From the NCBI GenBank assembly GCA_026396175.1, contig JAPLXG010000012.1:19360-83359 (forward strand): a DNA stretch of 64,000 nucleotides. The letters run 5' to 3'. Positions 2,885-59,035 of the stretch are shown here, piece after piece. A program made the position numbers and the translations under genes. This DNA is from Candidatus Moraniibacteriota bacterium. GTDB taxonomy: Bacteria; Patescibacteriota; Minisyncoccia; Moranbacterales; UBA2206. The stretch's first letter is position 1. Each line of letters opens with the position of its first letter. The notes below the pieces were generated by a model that saw only the letters and a list, made by a program, of their open reading frames with translations, had not been told where the DNA came from and searched no databases.

Positions 2885-3035
2885 CCCCGCACTAATTTAA
2901 AAAATAAATAAATCGCCGTCCTAGCTCAATGGCAGAGCAACTGTTTTGTAAACAGTAGGTTATCAGTTCAACTCTGATGGACGGCTCATGAGTCTAGAAG
3001 TAATTTACTGGTGCACTTTTTAAATTAGTGCGGGG
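2885..3035. repeat. Perfect 14-bp inverted repeat (CCCCGCACTAATTT at 2885-2898 / AAATTAGTGCGGGG at 3022-3035) bracketing the embedded tRNA-Thr
   Basis: Exact reverse complements read directly from sequence. Confidence 0.8.
2915..2986 (+). tRNA. tRNA-Thr (anticodon UGU), intact
   Basis: Acceptor GCCGTCC/GGACGGC, D-arm TAGCTCAATGGCAGAGCA, anticodon stem ACTGT/ACAGT with loop TTTGTAA, T-arm ATCAG-TTCAACT-CTGAT; no encoded CCA. Confidence 0.8.
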
Positions 3036-3053
3036 TAAATAGGTTATCGGTTC

Positions 3054-3073
3054 CCTGCCTGCCGGTAGGCAGG
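3054..3073. repeat. 20-nt palindrome family member (CCTGCCTGCCGGTAGGCAGG) inserted in the T-loop of the disrupted outer tRNA-Thr
   Basis: Removing it restores a canonical 7-nt T-loop TTCAACT. Confidence 0.7.
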
Positions 3074-3096
3074 AACTCCGATCTTCGGCTCAAAAT

Positions 3097-3124
3097 CATG
3101 TAGCATATAACATGTAGCATATAA
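3097..3124. repeat. Tandem 14-mer direct repeat CATGTAGCATATAA x2, followed at 3148-3176 by a CATGTT-rich tract
   Basis: Exact tandem duplication; a related CATGTTTCATG...TTACATG tract recurs inside priA at 14201-14233. Confidence 0.6.
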
Positions 3125-3197
3125 CAGGACTCCTTAATGATTTTGTTACATGTTTCATGTTGCATGTTACATGCAGTGGGTCGGTGGCGGAGTGGTC

Positions 3198-3217
3198 CCT
3201 GCCTACTGGCAGGCAGG
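3198..3217. repeat. 20-nt palindrome family member (variant CCTGCCTACTGGCAGGCAGG) in the D-loop of the outer tRNA-Tyr copy
   Basis: Flanked by GGTC and AATCGCAGC, which are contiguous in the intact tRNA-Tyr. Confidence 0.65.
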
Positions 3218-3264
3218 AATCGCAGCTGACTGTAAATCAGCCGATTTCGGTCTACGGGCGCGCG

Positions 3265-3430
3265 TCCCTCACCAATTTCGAACATTTTAAAATTATTTAG
3301 GGCAGACAGGGATATGGGTCGGTGGCGGAGTGGTCAATCGCAGCTGACTGTAAATCAGCCGATTTCGGTCTACGGGGGTTCGAATCCCTCCCGGCCCACA
3401 AGGCTGTCCTAGTTCGAAATTGGTGAGGGA
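3265..3430. repeat. Perfect 19-bp inverted repeat (TCCCTCACCAATTTCGAAC at 3265-3283 / GTTCGAAATTGGTGAGGGA at 3412-3430) bracketing the intact tRNA-Tyr
   Basis: Exact reverse complements; the same architecture as at the tRNA-Thr locus. Confidence 0.8.
3316..3398 (+). tRNA. tRNA-Tyr (anticodon GUA), type II with long variable arm, intact
   Basis: Acceptor GGGTCGG/CCGGCCC (one G-U), anticodon stem GCTGA/TCAGC with loop CTGTAAA, long variable arm, T-arm GGGGG-TTCGAAT-CCCTC. Confidence 0.8.
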
Positions 3431-3461
3431 TGAAAATCCTTCCCGGCCCACATAATTTTAC

Positions 3462-3534
3462 GCCGTTGTAGCTCAGTCGGTAGAGCATTTCCATGGTAAG
3501 GAAAAGGTCCGCAGTTCGATTCTGCGCAACGGCT
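3462..3534 (+). tRNA. tRNA-Thr (anticodon GGU), intact
   Basis: Acceptor GCCGTTG/CAACGGC, anticodon stem TTTCC/GGAAA with loop ATGGTAA, T-arm CGCAG-TTCGATT-CTGCG. Confidence 0.8.
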
Positions 3535-3540
3535 CAGGCT

Positions 3541-3587
3541 AAAGGTCCCCTGCCTGCCGGCAGGCAGGGATTCCGGACAACGGCTCA
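3541..3587 (+). pseudogene. Partial duplicate of the tRNA-Thr(GGU) 3' portion; the 20-nt palindrome (3549-3568, perfect) replaces the 5' strand of the T-stem
   Basis: AAAGGTCC[CCTGCCTGCCGGCAGGCAGG]GATTCCGGACAACGGCTCA against the tRNA's AAAGGTCCGCAGTTCGATTCTGCGCAACGGCTCA. Confidence 0.55.
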
Positions 3588-5067: not shown

Positions 5068-5194
5068 ATCCCCCACCACTTTTTTGCTCGCATTTCGTGC
5101 GAAAGTGAAGTAGCCCTAGAAGCTATCGTCGGGAGAATGCTAGGATATAATTTCTAGCCAAAATAAATTCAAAAGCAAAAAAGTGGTGGGGGAT
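5068..5194. repeat. 127-bp unit bounded by a perfect 20-bp inverted repeat (ATCCCCCACCACTTTTTTGC / GCAAAAAAGTGGTGGGGGAT), ending 8 nt before the ATG at 5203
   Basis: Exact reverse complements at 5068-5087 and 5175-5194; the internal 87 nt contains further small hairpins and a TATAAT at 5146-5151. Confidence 0.5.
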
Positions 5195-10937: not shown

Positions 10938-11900
10938 TTATTTCAAAACACTTCCGATAAAGCTCGGGTTGCCGTTGATAAAGTCTGCAATCTTCAGATT
11001 ATTTTTTCCTTCCAGCTGGACCTCCTCCAAAAAAACAGTCCCAGCACCAGTTTGCACGGCAATTTTTTCACCGGATTGAAAAACCTCTCCCATAGAATAT
11101 TCTCCTTGCGAGGTCGTATTTCCGAGAGAAAGTTTATTGATTTTTAATCTAAGGTTTGATCCATTGCGTTGCCAATAGGTGAAGATTCCCGGCCAAGAAT
11201 AAAAGGCGCGATATTGATCATAAATTGAGCGCGCATCATCCAGCCAAATTACTTTTCCGTCACTTCTTTCAATCAACTGGCAAAGCGTGGCCGTCTCGTT
11301 AGATTGCTCTTGTGGAGTGATTTTTCTCTCCACCCAAAGCGTGATTGTCTCCAAGAGCAAGGGAACCGAAAGTCGCGCCAGCTTTTGCGAAAGCTCAACG
11401 TTGGTTTCGTCCGGTTCAATTTTAGTTTTTTTCTGACTAAGAATCGCGCCAGTATCAATGCCGGCGTCCATCAGCATAATAGTTACGCCAGTTTCTTTTT
11501 CGGAGTCCAGTAGGGCATTTTGAATCGGGGATGGTCCGCGGTAGCGGGGGAGAAGCGAGGCGTGGATGTTAATCGCACCGAAACCGGGCAGATCTAAAAC
11601 GGCCTTGGGCAGAATTTTTCCATAAGCTGCAACGATGAGCAGATCCGGTTTTTGATTTTTCAGTTCCGCGATTTCTGCTTCTCTAAATTTAGCAGGAGAA
11701 AAAACCGGAATCTTACTATTTTCAGCGGTGATTTTGACAGCCGTTTTTTGCAATGCTTGATCACGACCGACTTTTTTATCCGCCTGCGTATAGACGCTGA
11801 TCAAATTATATTTTTCAGCAATGAGCGCAGTGAGAATCGTGTCGGCAAAAGACGACGTACCCATAAAAACAACGCGCAGTTTGATGGATTTTTTTTGCAT
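10938..11900 (-). CDS. fmt: Methionyl-tRNA formyltransferase
   Basis: LRVVFMGTSSFA...NIHASLLPRYRGPSPIQ. Start placed at the internal Met (MQKKSIKLRVVFMG) rather than the upstream ORF-track start. Confidence 0.85.
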   Translation of the reverse strand: MQKKSIKLRVVFMGTSSFADTILTALIAEKYNLISVYTQADKKVGRDQALQKTAVKITAENSKIPVFSPAKFREAEIAELKNQKPDLLIVAAYGKILPKAVLDLPGFGAINIHASLLPRYRGPSPIQNALLDSEKETGVTIMLMDAGIDTGAILSQKKTKIEPDETNVELSQKLARLSVPLLLETITLWVERKITPQEQSNETATLCQLIERSDGKVIWLDDARSIYDQYRAFYSWPGIFTYWQRNGSNLRLKINKLSLGNTTSQGEYSMGEVFQSGEKIAVQTGAGTVFLEEVQLEGKNNLKIADFINGNPSFIGSVLK

Positions 11901-11929
11901 AGTTTTTATTTTTTTAGAGTTTATGTTAT

Positions 11930-12074
11930 GACTTACGCGTTCACCAAAAGCAATCTTCAAAGCGCGGGGTTCACTAGAGATGGGTACTGCTTATATCAGC
12001 CCCCAAGACTAAGAAATTTTTTCCAGACTAGTCTTGGCTATAGATAAGCTTGCTTTTGGCAAATGCGTAAGTCC
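11930..12074 (-). mobile_element. MITE-like element copy A (145 bp, roughly 30-bp terminal inverted repeats GACTTACGCGTT..CCAAAAGCAA) inserted between def and fmt
   Basis: Ends GACTTACGCGTTCACCAAAAGCAATCTT / AGCTTGCTTTTGGCAAATGCGTAAGTCC are inverted repeats. Near-identical ends occur at 46407-46551 and 56268-56413. Flanking TTATGTT on both sides may be a target-site duplication. Confidence 0.6.
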
Positions 12075-12082
12075 TTTATGTT

Positions 12083-12523
12083 TTAGGTTCTTTCAATGTA
12101 AAGAATTCCATCTAAATGATCGATTTCATGTTGCAATGCTCGCGCCAAAAGTCCTTCGGCTTCCAGTGTAATTTCTTTTCCAGATTTATTTTTTGCGACC
12201 ACTTTTACTTTTTTAGAGCGCTTGATCGGGATGAATTGCCCAGGAAAAGAAAGACAACCTTCTTCGGCAATTTCTTTCGCCCAGGATTTGGATTTGATTT
12301 TAGGATTAATCAAAATGTAGGTTTTTCTTTCAAATCTGATGACGCAAAGGCGGAGTGGTTTTCCCACCTGGGCGGCGGCGAGTCCCATACCGTTATTCTC
12401 TTTCATCGTCTCCAACATATCAAAAATCAACTCCCGAATCAAGGGCTCTTTGGGATTTTCAATCTCGCGCGCTTTTTGTTTCAAACGCGGATCAGGATAG
12501 AGTAAGATGGGTAGTAGTGACAT
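12083..12523 (-). CDS. def: Peptide deformylase
   Basis: GxGxAAxQ (GLAAAQVG), EGCLSFPG, HEIDHLDG motifs. Confidence 0.9.
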   Translation of the reverse strand: MSLLPILLYPDPRLKQKAREIENPKEPLIRELIFDMLETMKENNGMGLAAAQVGKPLRLCVIRFERKTYILINPKIKSKSWAKEIAEEGCLSFPGQFIPIKRSKKVKVVAKNKSGKEITLEAEGLLARALQHEIDHLDGILYIERT

Positions 12524-18777: not shown

Positions 18778-20082
18778 ATGCAAATAAAAAATTTCGTCTT
18801 GAGCAGAAAAAAAATAAAATTTGAAATTTTTGTAATAATATTTTTTATATTCTTTTTTTCGTATGAAAAGAGTGTCTTGGCAGATTCCAATGATTGCAGC
18901 GCACTTTCCGGAGATGCCCAGCAGCAATGCGAAGACCTGGAGAAAAAAGCCAGGATATATGAAGACCTGATAAAACTGAAAAACAAACAACAAGACGCCT
19001 TGGCGGGACAATTGGATAGTATCAATAGCGAACAAGCAAAAACTGTTGCACAACTCCAAGAGACCCAAAAACAAGTTCAAACATTGCAGCAGCAAATTGA
19101 TAATCTGGAAGAAAATATCAAAGATGGTGAGGCAGCGATGAATTTTCAAAAAAATATTCTAGCCGGATTGATGCAGTCCTATTATGAATATGATCAGCAG
19201 GGGATTTTGCCGGTTGTACTCACTAATGCGGCCTTTTCTGATATATTAAATCAATCTGATTATATCGAGCAATCCGGAGCCAAGGTTTCTGATGTTCTGG
19301 CAGAAGTCATTCGGACCAGGCAAAAATTAATCGATGACCAAAATACCTTAAAGCAAAAAAAGGAAGAGATTGATGGCGCTAAAAATGATTTGATTGACAA
19401 GAAAGAAAATCTGCAATCGACGGAAAATCAAAAAACCAATCTTCTAGTTCAAACTCAAGGTGAAGAAGTGAAATATAAACAACTGCTTGCTAATGCGGAG
19501 GCGCAAAGAGCCGAGCTGTTTGATTTTAGTGCGGCGAGCAACATTGATGATGTTAAACAAAGCGTGGGAGGTTATGCGAAGCCGTCATCAAATCTGGCAT
19601 CTACCAGTTGGTATTTTTCCCAACTTGATTCCCGTTGGGGCAAGATGAAAATTGGAAATTCAAATTCTCTAATGGAAGATTATGGTTGCGCCGTAACATC
19701 GCTGGCGATGGTTTTTCGCGAAAAAGGTGCCAGTACCGATCCGGGAAAAATGGCCAAACAAAAAATATTTTCTTTCGATCTGATCAAATGGCCCGGCTCA
19801 TGGAGTCCGGGAATAAGCTTGGTTTCCTCAATTTCGCACGGCAATATTAGTTGGTCCACAGTTGACGCGCAAATCAAAAAAGGCAATCCAGTGATTGTCT
19901 ATCTCAGTCGCAGTCGCGGCGGCGGTCACTATGTTGTGGTAACTGGAAAAGATAGTAAGGATTATATCGTTCATGATCCATACTTTGGAGCGAATCTATA
20001 TCTTAGTACCTCAAAATCACTTGTAGGAAAATTAGGTGCAAATAGTAGCGTCTCAGTTAATCAGATGATTATCTATAACTAA
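18778..20082 (+). CDS. Secreted coiled-coil protein with C-terminal C39-like (papain-fold) peptidase domain; PcsB-like putative cell-wall hydrolase
   Basis: Signal/TM N-terminus, roughly 200-aa Gln/Lys/Glu-rich coiled coil, then YGCAVTSLAMV...GGGHYVVVTG...VHDP (Cys/His/Asp order of C39-like peptidases). Confidence 0.55.
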   Translation: MQIKNFVLSRKKIKFEIFVIIFFIFFFSYEKSVLADSNDCSALSGDAQQQCEDLEKKARIYEDLIKLKNKQQDALAGQLDSINSEQAKTVAQLQETQKQVQTLQQQIDNLEENIKDGEAAMNFQKNILAGLMQSYYEYDQQGILPVVLTNAAFSDILNQSDYIEQSGAKVSDVLAEVIRTRQKLIDDQNTLKQKKEEIDGAKNDLIDKKENLQSTENQKTNLLVQTQGEEVKYKQLLANAEAQRAELFDFSAASNIDDVKQSVGGYAKPSSNLASTSWYFSQLDSRWGKMKIGNSNSLMEDYGCAVTSLAMVFREKGASTDPGKMAKQKIFSFDLIKWPGSWSPGISLVSSISHGNISWSTVDAQIKKGNPVIVYLSRSRGGGHYVVVTGKDSKDYIVHDPYFGANLYLSTSKSLVGKLGANSSVSVNQMIIYN

Positions 20083-25115: not shown

Positions 25116-25130
25116 ACTTTATCAATATCC

Positions 25131-25284
25131 CCTTCTCCCTTAGGGAGAAGGTGGCTGAAAGCCGGATGAGGGAGAAGCCTTTCGATAATTGGCCATTTAC
25201 TTATTTACTCAGCATTTTTCTTTTTATCAACGCCCTTTCCCTCACCTGTCACGAGTACGTGACATCCTCTCCCTAAGGGAGAGG
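25131..25284. repeat. Pair of related palindromic hairpins (CCTTCTCCCTTAGGGAGAAGG at 25131-25151; CCTCTCCCTAAGGGAGAGG at 25266-25284) bracketing roughly 115 bp between convergent genes
   Basis: Each is self-complementary and they are near reverse complements of each other; the interior holds GTCACGAGTACGTGAC and a CCCTTTCCCTCACC motif. Confidence 0.55.
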
Positions 25285-25289
25285 AGGAC

Positions 25290-35037: not shown

Positions 35038-35205
35038 ACTTTTTTTATTGAAAATTTAATTAAATTAACTAGACCGGGCAGGAACGGGTTTGTAACCCGT
35101 TTCGCATGTTTTACGGATTAGCCATAACATAACATCTGTAAACTTTGCGGACCGGGTTGCAAACCCGCTCCTGCGACATCTCCTGCAATGTGAATTTTCT
35201 ACAGA

Positions 35206-45405: not shown

Positions 45406-46389
45406 ATGAAACTGATTGTCAACATTCCCGCTTACAACGAAGAAGCGAAAATTGGAGAAACAATTGAACGTATCAAAAAAAGCTTTTCAGCCGATTTTTA
45501 TACACAGGGCGAAGGATCGAAGATTTCTGAGAAATTGATTCAGATGGTGGATGACGGATCAAGCGATAATACGGTCGAAGTTGCCCAGAAAGCCGGACTA
45601 GACCTGCTCGTCTCCTATAAACCCAATCGCCGCCTGGCTTATTCTTTCAAGCGGGCCGTAGAAAATGCGCTGGAAAATGGTGCGGATATTATGGTCAATA
45701 TTGATGCGGATGGCCAATTTAACCCGCTGGATATTCCTAAATTAATTACTCCGATCCTCGCTGGCCAATGTGATATGGTGATTGCTAATCGCTTCGGCAA
45801 GCATGAAGCCAAGGATATGCCAAAAATCAAATACCACCTTAACCGTTTTGCCGCCAAAATGATTGGCTTTTTTCTCAACTACCCCATTGATGATTTGACT
45901 TGCGGATTTCGCGCACATAACCGCGAAACACTCCTGCGCCTCAATATTACTAATGTCAGCTTCACCTACACCCAAGAAACAATCATTGATGCAATTGGAA
46001 AAAATTTGAAACTAAAATGGGTGCCGGTTAATGTTCAGTATTTCGCTGATCGCGAAAGCCGAATTGTGAAATCAGTTTGGAAATTCGTAGGAAACTCAGC
46101 TAAAATAATCCTAAAAGCAGTGCGTGATGTCCGTCCAATGAAATTTTTTGGCGTTCCCGGGCTCACCCTGGTCACTGCATCTCTTTTGGTTTTTTGTGCT
46201 TTTCTTTTTCAATATTTTCAAACTTTCCAAATCACCACTTACCGCAACTACCTTTTCCTTTCCGCCGCACTGCTCTTTGTTGGCTCGCAACTCCTCATTT
46301 TTGCCCTTATTGCCGATATGATCAAAACTAATCGCAACCTCACTGAAGAGCAAATGTATCTCTTGAAAAAAGACCGGCTTAAAAAATAG
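45406..46389 (+). CDS. Glycosyltransferase family 2 (polyprenol-phosphate sugar transferase-like, C-terminal TM helices)
   Basis: VNIPAYNEE...DDGSSDNT...DADGQ GT-A motifs and C-terminal membrane anchor. Confidence 0.8.
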   Translation: MKLIVNIPAYNEEAKIGETIERIKKSFSADFYTQGEGSKISEKLIQMVDDGSSDNTVEVAQKAGLDLLVSYKPNRRLAYSFKRAVENALENGADIMVNIDADGQFNPLDIPKLITPILAGQCDMVIANRFGKHEAKDMPKIKYHLNRFAAKMIGFFLNYPIDDLTCGFRAHNRETLLRLNITNVSFTYTQETIIDAIGKNLKLKWVPVNVQYFADRESRIVKSVWKFVGNSAKIILKAVRDVRPMKFFGVPGLTLVTASLLVFCAFLFQYFQTFQITTYRNYLFLSAALLFVGSQLLIFALIADMIKTNRNLTEEQMYLLKKDRLKK

Positions 46390-46406
46390 TTTTTCTTGTT
46401 ATTCCC

Positions 46407-46551
46407 GGACTTACGTGTTTGCCAAAAGCAAGCTTTTCTATAGCCAAGATTAGCCTAAGGAAACTCCCATGATTCTAGGGACTAATATGGGCAAAGACAG
46501 GCCCTAAGTAACCACGCGCTTTAAAGATTGTTTTTGGTAAATACGTAAGTC
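46407..46551 (+). mobile_element. MITE-like element copy B (145 bp)
   Basis: GGACTTACGTGTTTGCCAAAAGCAAGCTT ... CTTTAAAGATTGTTTTTGGTAAATACGTAAGTC terminal inverted repeats; between the GT2 and GT4 genes. Confidence 0.6.
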
Positions 46552-46563
46552 GCAAACTAAACT

Positions 46564-47685
46564 ATGCAAACTGCGAAAAAACCACGTATTCTTTTTATCT
46601 CTCGCGCTTATCCGCCAGTAACAGGTGGAATTGAAAATCAAAACTATGAAGTTTCTTTGTGGCTAAGTAAAATTACTGATGTCAAAATAGTTGCCAATAA
46701 AAAAGGGCGTAAATTTCTTCCCCTATTCGCGCCCTACGCACTTTTTTACACTATCTTTAATATTAGAAAATACGATGTCATTTTACTGGGAGATGGAGTT
46801 TTGTCATTTATTAGCTGGTTTACTAAAATATTTTCCTCAAAACCAATACTCGCAGTTATCCATGGGCTAGATGTCAATTATGATTCAGCTTCTCTTGGGG
46901 TGTGGTATGAAAAAATTCTAATTTTTTTATACCAAAAACTCTGGGTAAAACTTTTCCTGCCAAGTCTTGATAAATTCATAGCTGTGGGCAATGAAACAGT
47001 AAAGGTGCTAAGATTAAAAAATATCCCTTCAAAAAAGATAGTTTTTATACCCAATGGTATTGATCAAAATAAATTTTACAAGCTAACTGATCGAACAGAA
47101 TTAGAAAAAATTCTCGACCTCGATCTTTCAGGAAAAAAGATACTGCTAACCTCTGGCAGACTAGCAAGAAGAAAGGGTGTCGCCTGGTTTTGCAGAAATG
47201 TAATGCCAAAATTGCCAGAAAACATCCTCTACATTGTAGCTGGCAATGGACCAGACAAAAATAACATCGCCAACGCCATAGTAGAAAATAACCTTTCTCA
47301 AAGGGTAATTATGCTTGGTTTTGTAACAGATAAAGTGCGCAATAATCTTTTTAATACGTGCGACCTATTTATTCAACCAAATATTAAAATTACAGGCGAC
47401 ATGGAAGGCTTTGGCATGTCAGTAATTGAAGCAGCTTCTTGTCAAATCCCAGTAATTGCTTCAAGTCTCGAAGGATTAAAAGATGCTATCAAAGATGGCA
47501 AGAATGGCTTTCTGGTTGGGACGGAAGATGCGCAAGGGTATATCGAAAAGATAACTTCCCTGCTCGCAAATGATGCCTACCGCAGAGAGTTCGGTAAGGA
47601 GGCCAGGCAATATATTATTGAAAATTATAGTTGGGGAAAAATTTCTCAGCGCTATCTTGAAGAAATTGAGAAAACATTATGCTAG
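46564..47685 (+). CDS. Glycosyltransferase family 4 (GT-B)
   Basis: GDMEGFGMSVIEAASCQIPVIAS. Confidence 0.8.
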   Translation: MQTAKKPRILFISRAYPPVTGGIENQNYEVSLWLSKITDVKIVANKKGRKFLPLFAPYALFYTIFNIRKYDVILLGDGVLSFISWFTKIFSSKPILAVIHGLDVNYDSASLGVWYEKILIFLYQKLWVKLFLPSLDKFIAVGNETVKVLRLKNIPSKKIVFIPNGIDQNKFYKLTDRTELEKILDLDLSGKKILLTSGRLARRKGVAWFCRNVMPKLPENILYIVAGNGPDKNNIANAIVENNLSQRVIMLGFVTDKVRNNLFNTCDLFIQPNIKITGDMEGFGMSVIEAASCQIPVIASSLEGLKDAIKDGKNGFLVGTEDAQGYIEKITSLLANDAYRREFGKEARQYIIENYSWGKISQRYLEEIEKTLC

Positions 47686-50056: not shown

Positions 50057-50061
50057 TATTT

Positions 50062-50279
50062 GGGACTTACGCATTTAAATTAATTTGTCATCCTGAGCAA
50101 ATCCGCCAACTGGCGGAGAAGTCGAAGGATCTATTTTCCATTATCGTAAGCCCTGCTATTAAGTAGAAAACTCTGGGTTACGGTTAGCAGATCCTTCGAC
50201 TGCGTCCTGAGTACAGGACTTCGCTCAGGATGACAGGGCTTGGTTGTTTTTGAGCAAACGCATAAGGTCATAGCATAGC
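50062..50279. repeat. Highly structured 218-bp intergenic element with nested 12-bp inverted repeats; termini resemble the MITE family (diverged variant)
   Basis: GTCATCCTGAGC/GCTCAGGATGAC and GTCGAAGGATCT/AGATCCTTCGAC inverted repeats, central GTCCTGAGTACAGGAC hairpin; ends GGACTTACGCATTT ... AAACGCATAAGGTC. Confidence 0.4.
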
Positions 50280-56250: not shown

Positions 56251-56267
56251 AGCTTAGTTCTAATTTA

Positions 56268-56413
56268 GGACTTACGCGTTTGCCAAAAGCAAGCTTATCT
56301 ATAGCCAAGGCTAGTCCGAAAAAGTTTATTAGCATTAGAGGTTGATATGAACAGTAATAAACTCTAGCAAACCCCTCAGCTTTCAAAGATTGCTTTTGGT
56401 GAACGCGTAAGTC
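56268..56413 (+). mobile_element. MITE-like element copy C (146 bp)
   Basis: GGACTTACGCGTTTGCCAAAAGCAAGCTTATCTATAGCCAAGG ... CTTTCAAAGATTGCTTTTGGTGAACGCGTAAGTC; roughly 27/30 terminal inverted repeat match. Confidence 0.65.
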
Positions 56414-56419
56414 TTACAA

Positions 56420-59035
56420 CTAACCAACCTCAAAAACCAATTTATCGTTTTTCAGATCAATTTTTATTTTATCTCCTTCTTTTATCTTATTTTCAATCAA
56501 CAGTTTCGCGAGCTCGTTCATTATTTCCGTTTGAATGAGTCGTTTTAAAGGTCTTGCGCCATAAGCCATATCAAACCCTTTTTTACTTAGGTATTCTTTT
56601 GTTGCTAGTGTCAGTTTTAACCTAATCTTTTTTTCTTCCAATCTTTTTTCAATTTGCATCAATTGTAGTTCTACAATCTTTCGAAGCATTTGATGGTTAA
56701 TTGGATGAAAAACAATAATTTCATCCAAGCGATTCAAAAATTCCGGTTTAAAACTTTCTTTAAGCGCCGAGAGGACTTTTTGGCGCATCTCTGTCTCGGC
56801 GATTGCTCCTTCTTCTTTTTCTTCGCGAAAACCAAGATTTTTTTTGTGAATTATTTCTGAACCTAGGTTGGAAGTCATTACAATAACCGTGTTTTTGAAA
56901 TTGACCCGCCGACCTTTTGCATCCGTCAAATAACCTTCGTCCAGAATCTGCAACATAATATTAAACACTTGCGGGTTGGCTTTCTCAATTTCATCAAACA
57001 AAATGACCGAGTAGGGTTTGCGCCGGACAATTTCCGTCAGCTGGCCACCTTCTTCATAGCCGACATAGCCAGGTGGTGATCCGATTAATTTGGCCGTACT
57101 ATGTGCCTCCATGTATTCTCCCATATCAACGCGGGTCATTGCTTTTTCATCATTAAACAAAAATTCTGCCAGGGCTTTGGCCAATTCTGTTTTTCCCACG
57201 CCGGTCGGTCCGAGAAAAATAAACGAACCAATTGGTCGTTTGCTTTCGGCAATTCCGGCGCGTGTTCGCCTGATTGCATTGGCCACCGCTGAAATTGCCT
57301 CGGCTTGTCCCACTACTCGTTTGCCAATTTCCGTTTCCATCTCGAGCAATTTTTGCGCTTCGTTTTCGATGAGCTTGGAAGTGGGAATTCCGGTCCAGCG
57401 AGAAACCACTTTGGCAATATCTTCCGCAGTCACCTCTTCTTTGAGAATAGCACCCTTTCCCTGCAAATCATCCAGTTTCTTTTTTTCGGCCATAACTTTC
57501 TTTTCCAATTCAGGAATTTTTCCATAACGGATTTCGGCCACTCTATCCAATTCCATTTTGCGCTCGGCAATTTCCGCGGTCGATTTTAGCTTATCAATTT
57601 CCGCCGCGTGCTTTCGAATATTAGTGATTAATTCTTTTTCCGCTTTCCATTGCAAAAGGACATTGCCTTCTTGTTCCCTAATTTCTGCCAGCTTGCGATT
57701 CAAGTCGCGAATCTTTTTTTTCGCGTCTTTATTTTTTTCTTTTTCCAATGCTTTTTTTTCAATTTCCATCCGGCGCAAAAGTCGTTCGGTCGAATCAATT
57801 TCCGCCGGCATTGAATCAATTTCCATCCGCAGAGCGCTAGTCGCTTCATCGATGAGATCAACCGCTTTATCAGGTAAAAAACGATCAGTGATATAGCGAT
57901 CGGAAAGTTTAACTGCTTCTTGGATGGCTGCATCGGTAATTTTCACACCGTGGTGTACTTCATATTTTTCCTTGAGACCACGCAGAATGGCAATCGAATC
58001 TTCAATTGATGGTTCGTCGACTATAATTGGTTGAAAACGCCTTTCAAAGGCAGCATCTTTTTCGATATATTTCTGATATTCTTTCGTCGTTGTGGCACCA
58101 ATCATATGCAATTTTCCCCGCGCCAGAGCGGGTTTGAGCATATTAGAAGCATCCATCGCACCTTCAATTGCTCCCGCACCGACCAGTGTGTGTAGTTCAT
58201 CGATAAAAAGAATGTAGCGGCCAGATTCGCGATCAACTTCATTGATGATGGCTTTCAATCTTTCTTCGAATTCTCCGCGAAATTTTGTGCCCGCAATAAG
58301 CAGACCAAGATCGAGTGACATTAATGATTTATTTTTCAAAGTTTCCGGTACGTCGCCGTCCGCGATTCTTTGCGCTAACCCTTCAGCGATAGCCGTCTTT
58401 CCTGTCCCCGCCTCACCAATCAGCACCGGATTATTTTTTGTCCTGCGGCTAAGCACCTGCATCACGCGCCTAATTTCATCATCGCGACCGATTACCGGAT
58501 CGAGTTTGTTATCCTTGGCTAGTTGCGTCAGATCAATTGTGTATTTTTTTAAAGCTTGCAAGCGGTTTTCCGGATCGGGTGAATCAATTTTTTGCGAACC
58601 ACGCAATTCTTGGATAATTTTCAGAATATTTTCATAGACAATTCCGTGTGCGGAAAGGAAATCTCGTACTACTCCTTTCGTCGCGAGAAATGAAAGCAGT
58701 AAATGCTCCGTGGAAACATATTCATCCTCATTTTTTCGCGCTTCAACTTCGGCATTGTTGAGTACTAGCACCACTTCCGGAGCGATAAAAATTTGCTTGA
58801 TGCCCTGCGGCGGATTGTGCGGATATTTTTCAATCTCCATCGTCGCAGCATATTTTATTTTTTCTTCGTCCAATTCCAGCTTTTTGACAATCACGGGAAT
58901 GATGGAATTTTCTTGATCTAAAAGCGCAAACAGCAGATGGAAAACATCCACCTGCTGTTGGTTATTGATAATGGCCAATTCTTGCGCGTCTTGCAATACC
59001 GCCTGCGCTTTAGTTGTAAATTTGTTTAGATCCAT
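56420..59035 (-). CDS. clpB: ATP-dependent chaperone ClpB
   Basis: Two AAA+ modules ([16 protein letters not shown]), long middle coiled-coil domain, N-terminal Clp repeat domain. Confidence 0.9.

Follow-up and report, generated by a model that had tools for sequence, protein, structure and literature searches.

Genomes of CPR/Patescibacteria are ~1 Mb in size, tightly packed, and usually regarded as poor in mobile DNA. In the window (the whole 64,000-nt stretch of Candidatus Moraniibacteriota DNA that was analyzed), most intergenic gaps are shorter than 40 nt, and a repeat that recurs elsewhere in the window lies between def (peptide deformylase) and fmt (methionyl-tRNA formyltransferase). 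What are these repeats, how did one of them come to separate def from fmt, and might it affect the operon that it entered? An initial annotation, made from the sequence without database searches, had proposed a MITE-like element family. That proposal is supported by a 5-bp target-site duplication, empty orthologous sites, independent insertions, and insertion in both orientations, and we are highly confident that the repeats are MITEs, non-autonomous DNA transposons that form one family in Candidatus Moraniibacteriota. The family appears to be undescribed, though of an ordinary, well-known kind.

Copies in the window and their neighbors

Three dispersed, intact copies are present in the window, which the initial annotation had drawn at 11930-12074 (minus strand), 46407-46551 (plus strand), and 56268-56413 (plus strand). 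These locations are sound, as a 29-nt 5′ end matches all three copies with 0-1 mismatch (shuffled sequences are expected to yield 0 matches); the exact ends required correction, the real element being 2 bases longer on each side, and a fourth, chimeric copy at 50061-50272 had been missed. Pfam backs the neighboring genes named earlier (def/fmt, GT2/GT4 and clpB), giving the gene orders priA-def-(A)-fmt-rhodanese, GT2-(B)-GT4, and clpB-(C)-DUF5656.

Copy A (11927-12076, minus strand; 150 bp, complete) lies between def and fmt, in the sense orientation relative to the priA-def-fmt transcript. The def gene (12083-12523, minus strand; PF01327, E 3.7e-49), whose stop codon is 12083-12085, is upstream, and fmt (10938-11900, minus strand; PF00551 and PF02911) is downstream, with its ATG start codon (11900-11898) 26 nt beyond the end of copy A; the insertion disrupts neither ORF, nor the fmt start region. 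Copy B (46405-46554, plus strand) occupies the spacer between the GT2 (45406-46389) and GT4 (46564-47685) genes in the sense orientation, whereas copy C (56266-56416, plus strand), placed directly 3′ of the clpB stop codon (56420-56422) and before the DUF5656 start (56250), is antisense to both of its neighbors. The forward strand of the element (reading GGACTTACG...) thus corresponds to the mRNA sense for A and B, and to the antisense for C. Copy D (50061-50272, plus strand) is chimeric, with family termini TG-GGACTTACGCATTT... and ...GGTTGTTTTTGAGCAAACGCATAAGGTCA-TA around an interior that is an unrelated palindrome.

The terminal inverted repeats of copy A are AAGGACTTACGCATTTGCCAAAAGCAAGCTT (5′ repeat, 12046-12076, minus strand) and AAGATTGCTTTTGGTGAACGCGTAAGTCATA (3′ repeat, 11927-11957, minus strand). 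Arms of ~28-31 nt were measured (28 nt with 86% complementarity in copy A, 31 nt with 87% in copy C), in line with the ~30 bp claimed for them, and the middles are divergent as described, the window copies being 66-81% identical to each other over the ~150-bp elements. When the three copies are aligned with ~10 nt of flank, mean column identity is 84%, and similarity spans ~146 nt and stops at the element borders. The flanks are unrelated, which rules out segmental duplication and leaves the MITE reading standing. By sequence, the window copies, which are old given their divergence, intermix with copies from other genomes, so the family, too, is old and has diversified.

A 5-bp target-site duplication and the true element ends

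The ends of the element were defined from its flanks, using 26 independent copies in which the 5′ and 3′ flanks were compared by register and then per position. A clear signal emerged in a single register, in which matches are confined to 5′ positions -7..-3 against 3′ positions +3..+7 (0.58-0.88, null 0.29-0.57), revealing that family copies are flanked by a 5-bp target-site duplication. It is perfect in 8 of the 26 copies and matches at 4/5 positions in another 8 of 26; in 100,000 permutations, 0 reach either the observed mean or the observed number of perfect duplications. Perfect duplications include the non-trivial 5-mers ACATA, GAACA, AACTC, ATTGG, and TTCGT. Between the duplication and the previously drawn ends are a conserved YA on the 5′ side (C in 14 and T in 7 copies, followed by A in 22/26) and a conserved TA on the 3′ side (T in 21, A in 22/26). 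Registers of 8, 9, and 10 bp also seemed significant, but the per-position signal comes from five positions only; the adjoining YA and TA belong to the element, so these apparent longer registers are not real duplication. The element is therefore YA-GGACTTACG...CGTAAGTC-N-TA, 147-152 bp in length, with consensus terminal repeats of ~31 nt (5′-YAGGACTTACGCGTTTGCCAAAAGCAAGCTT ... AAGATTGYTTTTGGTRAACGCGTAAGTCNTA-3′) and the end sequences YAGGACTTACG ... CGTAAGTCNTA.

In copy A, the duplication is TATGT on the plus strand, at 11922-11926 (fmt-proximal) and 12077-12081 (def-proximal, 1 nt from the def stop codon), and matches at 5/5 positions. A duplication flanking this copy had been suspected, at a length of 7-8 bp (TTATGTT); the duplication is real, but its true length is 5 bp, the extra T's being due to chance. 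The duplication of copy B (TATTC/AACTA, 2/5 match) has decayed, and the terminal dinucleotides of this copy are degenerate, while that of copy C (TAATT/CAACT) matches at 3/5 positions, with the 3′ repeat overlapping the clpB stop codon.

Empty and occupied orthologous sites

The def-fmt spacer is 182 nt long in the window (27 + 150 + 5), as compared to 23-35 nt in relatives that lack the element (23 nt in L037/L038, 35 nt in L039, 26 nt in L040). The closest relatives by Fmt (84, 82, and 80% identical, with spacers of 23, 35, and 26 nt, respectively) share the gene order priA-def-fmt-rhodanese-cpn10. In silico removal of copy A and one duplication yields AACATAAACTCTAAAAAAATAAAAACT, which resembles the L039 spacer. 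By this comparison, copy A inserted specifically in this lineage, 1 nt past the def stop codon, expanding the def-fmt spacer from ~27 to 182 nt. The statement that a copy splits the def-fmt operon is thus borne out, and, judging by the relatives' spacers, the def-fmt spacer sequence is not an ancient region conserved across the lineage.

In close relatives, none of the three intact window copies is present at the corresponding site. The gap between clpB and DUF5656 (169 nt in the window) is empty in four relatives with 79-88% identity (9 nt, overlapping genes, 6 nt, and 6 nt in L042-L045), and the orthologous GT2-GT4 spacer of L045 carries a different, perfect palindrome (19467-19601, CAAGAGGGACTAAGTCCCC AATT GGGGACTTAGTCCCTCTTG), so that one spacer has been struck by different elements in different lineages. 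The site of copy D is a 0-nt gap in L042 and harbors a normal copy in L021. No full copies were detected in ~118 kb of relatives' DNA, versus four in the 64-kb window.

Occupied sites are informative as well. One orthologous spacer holds the element in both L001 and L029 (74-79% flank identity), and a conserved GGGCAAAA(C/G)TGCAAGTTGC motif separates the two positions, the element being to one side of it in L001 and to the other in L029; these are separate insertions in two related species. The only clean orthologous pair of filled sites, L002/L003, is 85.9% identical within the element and 93.2-93.6% identical in the flanks; since the element is less conserved than its flanks, constraint has been relaxed after insertion. 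The differences are unevenly spread, with 1 change in the ~45 nt at the 5′ end and most of the 21 differences in the interior and 3′ arm.

Distribution, orientation and placement

Altogether, a profile search gave 36 forward-strand matches, representing 31 distinct copies, in the window and in 29 loci drawn from JGI metagenomes and three Moraniibacteriota MAGs. Beyond the window, 7 copies in three Candidatus Moraniibacteriota MAGs were recovered with a 26-base pattern built on the conserved 5′ portion, and an either-arm pattern yielded 29 metagenome stretches, 7 of which are chance matches without the element. Several loci contain two to three copies within a few kb. No similar elements were found in viral contigs, plasmids, or phages.

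Copies are located in short, A/T-rich intergenic spacers, mostly no more than 20 nt away from a start or stop codon; between co-directional genes, 12 are sense and 6 antisense, a bias that is not significant. Three copies begin with TGA(CTTACG), supplying or overlapping the stop codon of the upstream gene (element start TGACTTACG; L009 2972-2976, L035 1548-1552, and L017 ~1015, the TGA being or overlapping the upstream stop in L009 and L035).

A short-read (Logan) contig from another sample, encoding an identical Fmt, starts inside copy A (L041, 1-135), indicating that the repeat breaks assemblies. In another pair of contigs (L032 1-124 and L033 1-124), the element plus 23 nt are 100% identical while the adjoining coding sequence is ~85-88% identical. 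As the two sequences lie at contig ends of a single metagenome, an assembly artifact or recent conversion is possible, and the pair was set aside as a possible assembly-graph artifact.

Folding, arm co-variation and sequence signals

The terminal inverted repeats comprise 27 paired positions within the ~31-nt ends, and RNAalifold, applied to 27 copies, returns this 27-pair terminal stem as the sole conserved structure. Interior hairpins predicted in single copies are not shared, so a conserved interior RNA fold is ruled out across these 27 copies. Each window copy folds far better than its shuffles on either strand (z -3.3 to -8.2), with a forward-strand RNA fold of -54.4 kcal/mol (z -5.1) for copy A. 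The element has the same GC content as the genome. No ORF is conserved inside it, 23 of 27 copies being closed in all six reading frames. Nor does the element belong to a known RNA family: at gathering score, Rfam identifies only tRNAs, and the best match of the copies in a search to E 10 (E = 0.81) is unrelated.

No promoter-like site was detected by scan in or beside the copies. A possible outward hybrid promoter spotted by eye (TTGYTT, 17 nt, CATA plus flank) does not satisfy the scan criteria, its -10 lacking the T6, and a candidate terminator in the 5′ arm of copies B and C, consisting of a weak 6-bp hairpin and T-run (GTTTGCCAAAAGCAAGC TTTTCT), scores barely above shuffles. The element is neither a recognizable terminator nor a promoter.

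The two arms co-vary, with double changes at 7 of the 27 pairs (19 cells, versus 5.2 in shuffles; 0/500), and the alternative arm pairs CCTGCCCC/GGGGTAGG and CCTAACCC/GGGTTAGG are found on interiors clearly homologous to the main type. On the forward strand, 96.3% of stem cells are paired (27 copies), as compared to ~89.7% on the reverse strand, a value computed from the 62 forward-strand G-U pairs versus 14 A-C pairs (32 versus 12 once two ancestral wobble columns are removed). However, the G-U excess is equal in sense and antisense copies (~4:1 each); being independent of host-gene orientation, it is not evidence of RNA selection in place, and strand-specific selection on mRNA was rejected. 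Hybrid copies with mismatched arms also exist (L003, L014). We read these arm patterns as inherited from master copies, with a contribution from selection for transposability or from conversion between the arms. Passive decay by itself would not be expected to produce them, a hint that the hairpin is under selection or mediates conversion.

Decay, chimeras and other palindromes

Hairpin-only relics (L006 3134-3151, 18 nt; L006 1557-1597, 40 nt; L010 3575-3620, 46 nt; L037 4648-4729, ~75 nt) keep just the paired termini, indicating that copies shrink by internal deletion; comparable size gradients have been described in other prokaryotic MITEs (PMC10969869). Length variants of 136-215 nt combine the family ends with other interiors. 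In copy D, a palindrome at 50086-50235, with 47-nt arms (TGTCATCCTGAGC...GTCGAAGGATCT; 50086-50132 and 50189-50235) that are 72% complementary, is nested in, or replaces, the GGACTTACG-family interior. Family copies are themselves targets for other palindromic elements.

The window harbors several further palindromes. An intergenic palindrome of ~127 nt at 5068-5194, whose perfect terminal stem is 20 bp long (CATCCCCCACCACTTTTTTGC...; MFE -54.6 kcal/mol, z -9.1), is unrelated in sequence to the MITE family and possibly represents another MITE-like family. A ~161-nt palindrome at 25128-25288 (ends TCCCCTTCTCCCTTAGGGAGAAGG.../...CCTCTCCCTAAGGGAGAGGAGGA; MFE -68.4 kcal/mol, z -6.5) fills a 174-nt gap between genes encoding DUF2062 and HI0933-like proteins, and a long hairpin at ~35075-35180 (CCGGGCAGGAACGGGTTTGTAACCCG... 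/ ...CGGGTTGCAAACCCGCTCCTGCGAC) occupies the gap between the L9 and CTP synthase genes. Within the tRNA cluster, perfect 19-nt inverted repeats flank tRNA-Thr (2915-2987) and tRNA-Tyr (3316-3399), at 2885-3035 and 3265-3430, respectively, and CCTGCCTGCCGGTAGGCAGG-type palindromes recur among the tRNA genes at 3052-3570; these repeats may be processing stems or another repeat family.

Search for a cognate transposase

The initial annotation saw no transposase in the window, and Pfam agrees: none of the 55 window ORFs of at least 110 aa contains a transposase or integrase domain. Likewise, no transposase is encoded by the ORFs between paired copies (L004, L006, L024), and no pairs of ends at IS-like spacing occur in ~360 kb of fetched loci, with 3 mismatches allowed in the ends. 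Scanning metagenomes with either terminal repeat alone recovered only ~150-bp elements, in addition to the 7 chance matches. No IS-sized partner with matching ends was found in viral contigs, plasmids, or phages, nor any partner with matching ends in 185,579 genomes and 241 million metagenome contigs, in searches that demanded near-exact ends and that a diverged partner could escape. The genome, metagenome, viral, plasmid, and phage scans, the search for ends within loci, and Pfam thus yielded no candidate for an autonomous partner.

Comparison with known elements

Prokaryotic MITEs have been described as elements of <500 bp bounded by terminal inverted repeats and by direct repeats that erode over time; they occupy A/T-rich sites between genes, are transcribed into stable stem-loops, and form a gradient of copy sizes (PMC10969869). 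The family described here shares the generic features of small size (<500 bp), multiple copies at unrelated sites, inverted repeats, a duplication of fixed length, the absence of an ORF, and site polymorphism; an autonomous IS or transposon with matching repeats, which generically accompanies MITEs, was not found. In size, inverted repeats, fading direct repeats, sites, predicted stem-loop transcripts, truncation gradient, and the lack of a transposase it resembles MITEs such as Coxiella QMITE1/2 and Geobacter Chunjie, while it differs from the reviewed MITEs in its CPR/Patescibacteria host and in a sequence unrelated to any record searched (PMC10969869). We found no report of MITEs in CPR/Patescibacteria in the literature.

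Correia elements (CREE/NEMIS, Neisseria) duplicate TA. The Moraniibacteriota family, by contrast, has a 5-bp duplication of variable sequence, yielded no promoter-like site by scan, is unrelated in sequence, and ends in YAGGACTTACG, so the duplication and the repeats both place it outside the Correia group. The resemblance is nonetheless considerable: Correia elements are 100-155-bp intergenic MITEs with ~26-bp inverted repeats, and their ends contain promoter elements and an IHF site; they are often co-transcribed in operons, and RNase III binds or cuts their stem (PMC2649163). They are the best model for a possible effect of copy A on the def-fmt mRNA.

Tn3-family inverted repeats are ~38 bp in length, start with GGGG, and have TAAG at the internal end. 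The ends of the Moraniibacteriota family start with YAGG rather than the GGGG of this consensus, and no Tn3-type transposase or resolvase was seen. The family recalls Tn3-derived TIMEs, which are also non-autonomous and share its 5-bp duplication and long inverted repeats of ~30-38 bp (PMC4133298); assignment as a Tn3-derived MITE therefore agrees with the duplication but neither with the repeats nor with the lack of a cognate transposase. ERIC/IRU elements of enterobacteria and RUP of pneumococcus are likewise imperfect palindromes (~107-127 bp) found in transcribed intergenic regions in both orientations, although neither ERIC nor RUP shares sequence with the family. RUP duplicates TA and is linked to IS630-Spn1, and ERIC is not known to have a clear target duplication.

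Proposed mechanism and alternative explanations

For the MITE reading, we propose that a trans-acting DDE-type transposase would bind the inverted repeats, make a 5-bp staggered cut, and insert the element. Once inserted, the element would be co-transcribed with the host operon, its RNA forming the 27-bp terminal stem, which could be an RNase III substrate or alter mRNA stability. Copy A is co-oriented with its operon, and the transcript should therefore carry a hairpin of ~150 nt (-54 kcal/mol, predicted) that could modulate fmt expression.

A different view is that the element arrived by transposition and was then domesticated as a cis-acting RNA hairpin, kept as an RNase III site, mRNA stabilizer, or attenuator that would set the relative expression of neighbors such as def and fmt. 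We consider this rather unlikely. Pairing is indeed kept across subfamilies (GTTTGCC/GGTAAAC, CCTGCCCC/GGGGTAGG, CCTAACCC/GGGTTAGG), with all covariation measures exceeding shuffles, but gene conversion within the palindrome, or the need for both ends to fit one transposase, could produce the same pattern, and the L003 and L014 hybrids persist with unmatched arms. The better pairing of the forward-strand stem fits selection on RNA, yet the underlying G-U excess, alike in both orientations, looks inherited from master copies, and one third of copies are antisense to their neighbors. Although internal-deletion relics retain the terminal hairpin alone, and the 5′ ~45 nt are nearly unchanged between L002 and L003, where differences concentrate in the interior and 3′ arm, the element as a whole evolves ~2x faster than its flanks in this pair. 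An element-bearing MAG encodes a canonical RNase III, and the action of this enzyme on the stems of Correia MITEs is a precedent (PMC2649163); however, the closest relatives lack the element at these sites, and operon function therefore requires none of the window copies, and no terminator or promoter signal exceeds chance. A related possibility, which we regard as unlikely, is that in these streamlined genomes the 27-bp hairpin, besides binding a transposase, is selected for itself, perhaps as an RNase III/mRNA-stability module uncoupling the genes of an operon, and/or that a transposase type so far unrecognized in CPR bacteria moves the element. The former is hinted at by compensatory arm changes across subfamilies, the forward-strand wobble bias, and the survival of hairpin-only relics, while the latter would explain why no partner is present in the collections.

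Other explanations fare worse. That the repeats are a multi-copy small RNA gene, or an undescribed structured RNA family, with its own promoter is very improbable: the strong predicted folds (z -5 to -8), the forward-strand wobble bias, and a well-conserved asymmetric 5′ segment (TTGCCAAAAGCAAGCTTNTCTATAGCC) are offset by the lack of conserved interior structure, of any Rfam match up to E 10, and of a promoter-like site in or beside the copies, the flanks differing at every site and hence providing no common external promoter, and the 5-bp duplication and empty sites are marks of transposition, not of gene families. As long, imperfect palindromes that are abundant and intergenic, and whose short hairpin-only relics look like REPs, the repeats might also be REP/REPIN-type palindromes moved by a RAYT (IS200/IS605-like, single-strand) transposase in place of a DDE enzyme. 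REP/REPIN and IS200/IS605-type insertion produces no target-site duplication, whereas a clear 5-bp duplication is seen here, and a Y1/RAYT-like ORF is absent from the window, making this reading extremely improbable. We give practically no credence to an immobile origin, either as segmental duplications or as an ancient, conserved def-fmt regulatory spacer, since similarity ends at the element borders and the relatives' def-fmt spacers lack the element.

Significance

In a MITE family of Candidatus Moraniibacteriota, which we take the repeats to be, the phenomenon is ordinary MITE biology. The window contains four copies of this one family and at least three other, unrelated palindromic elements, and together these MITE copies and palindromes occupy most of the ~140-310-nt gaps outside the tRNA cluster. 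Intergenic variation, operon remodeling, and assembly breaks in such MAGs may thus arise in part from small non-autonomous elements. An HMM or consensus of the family can be used to flag repeat-induced contig ends, and sites where the element is present or absent can act as strain markers. The def-fmt insertion provides a natural test case for how a long, transcribed hairpin may bear on expression inside an essential operon.
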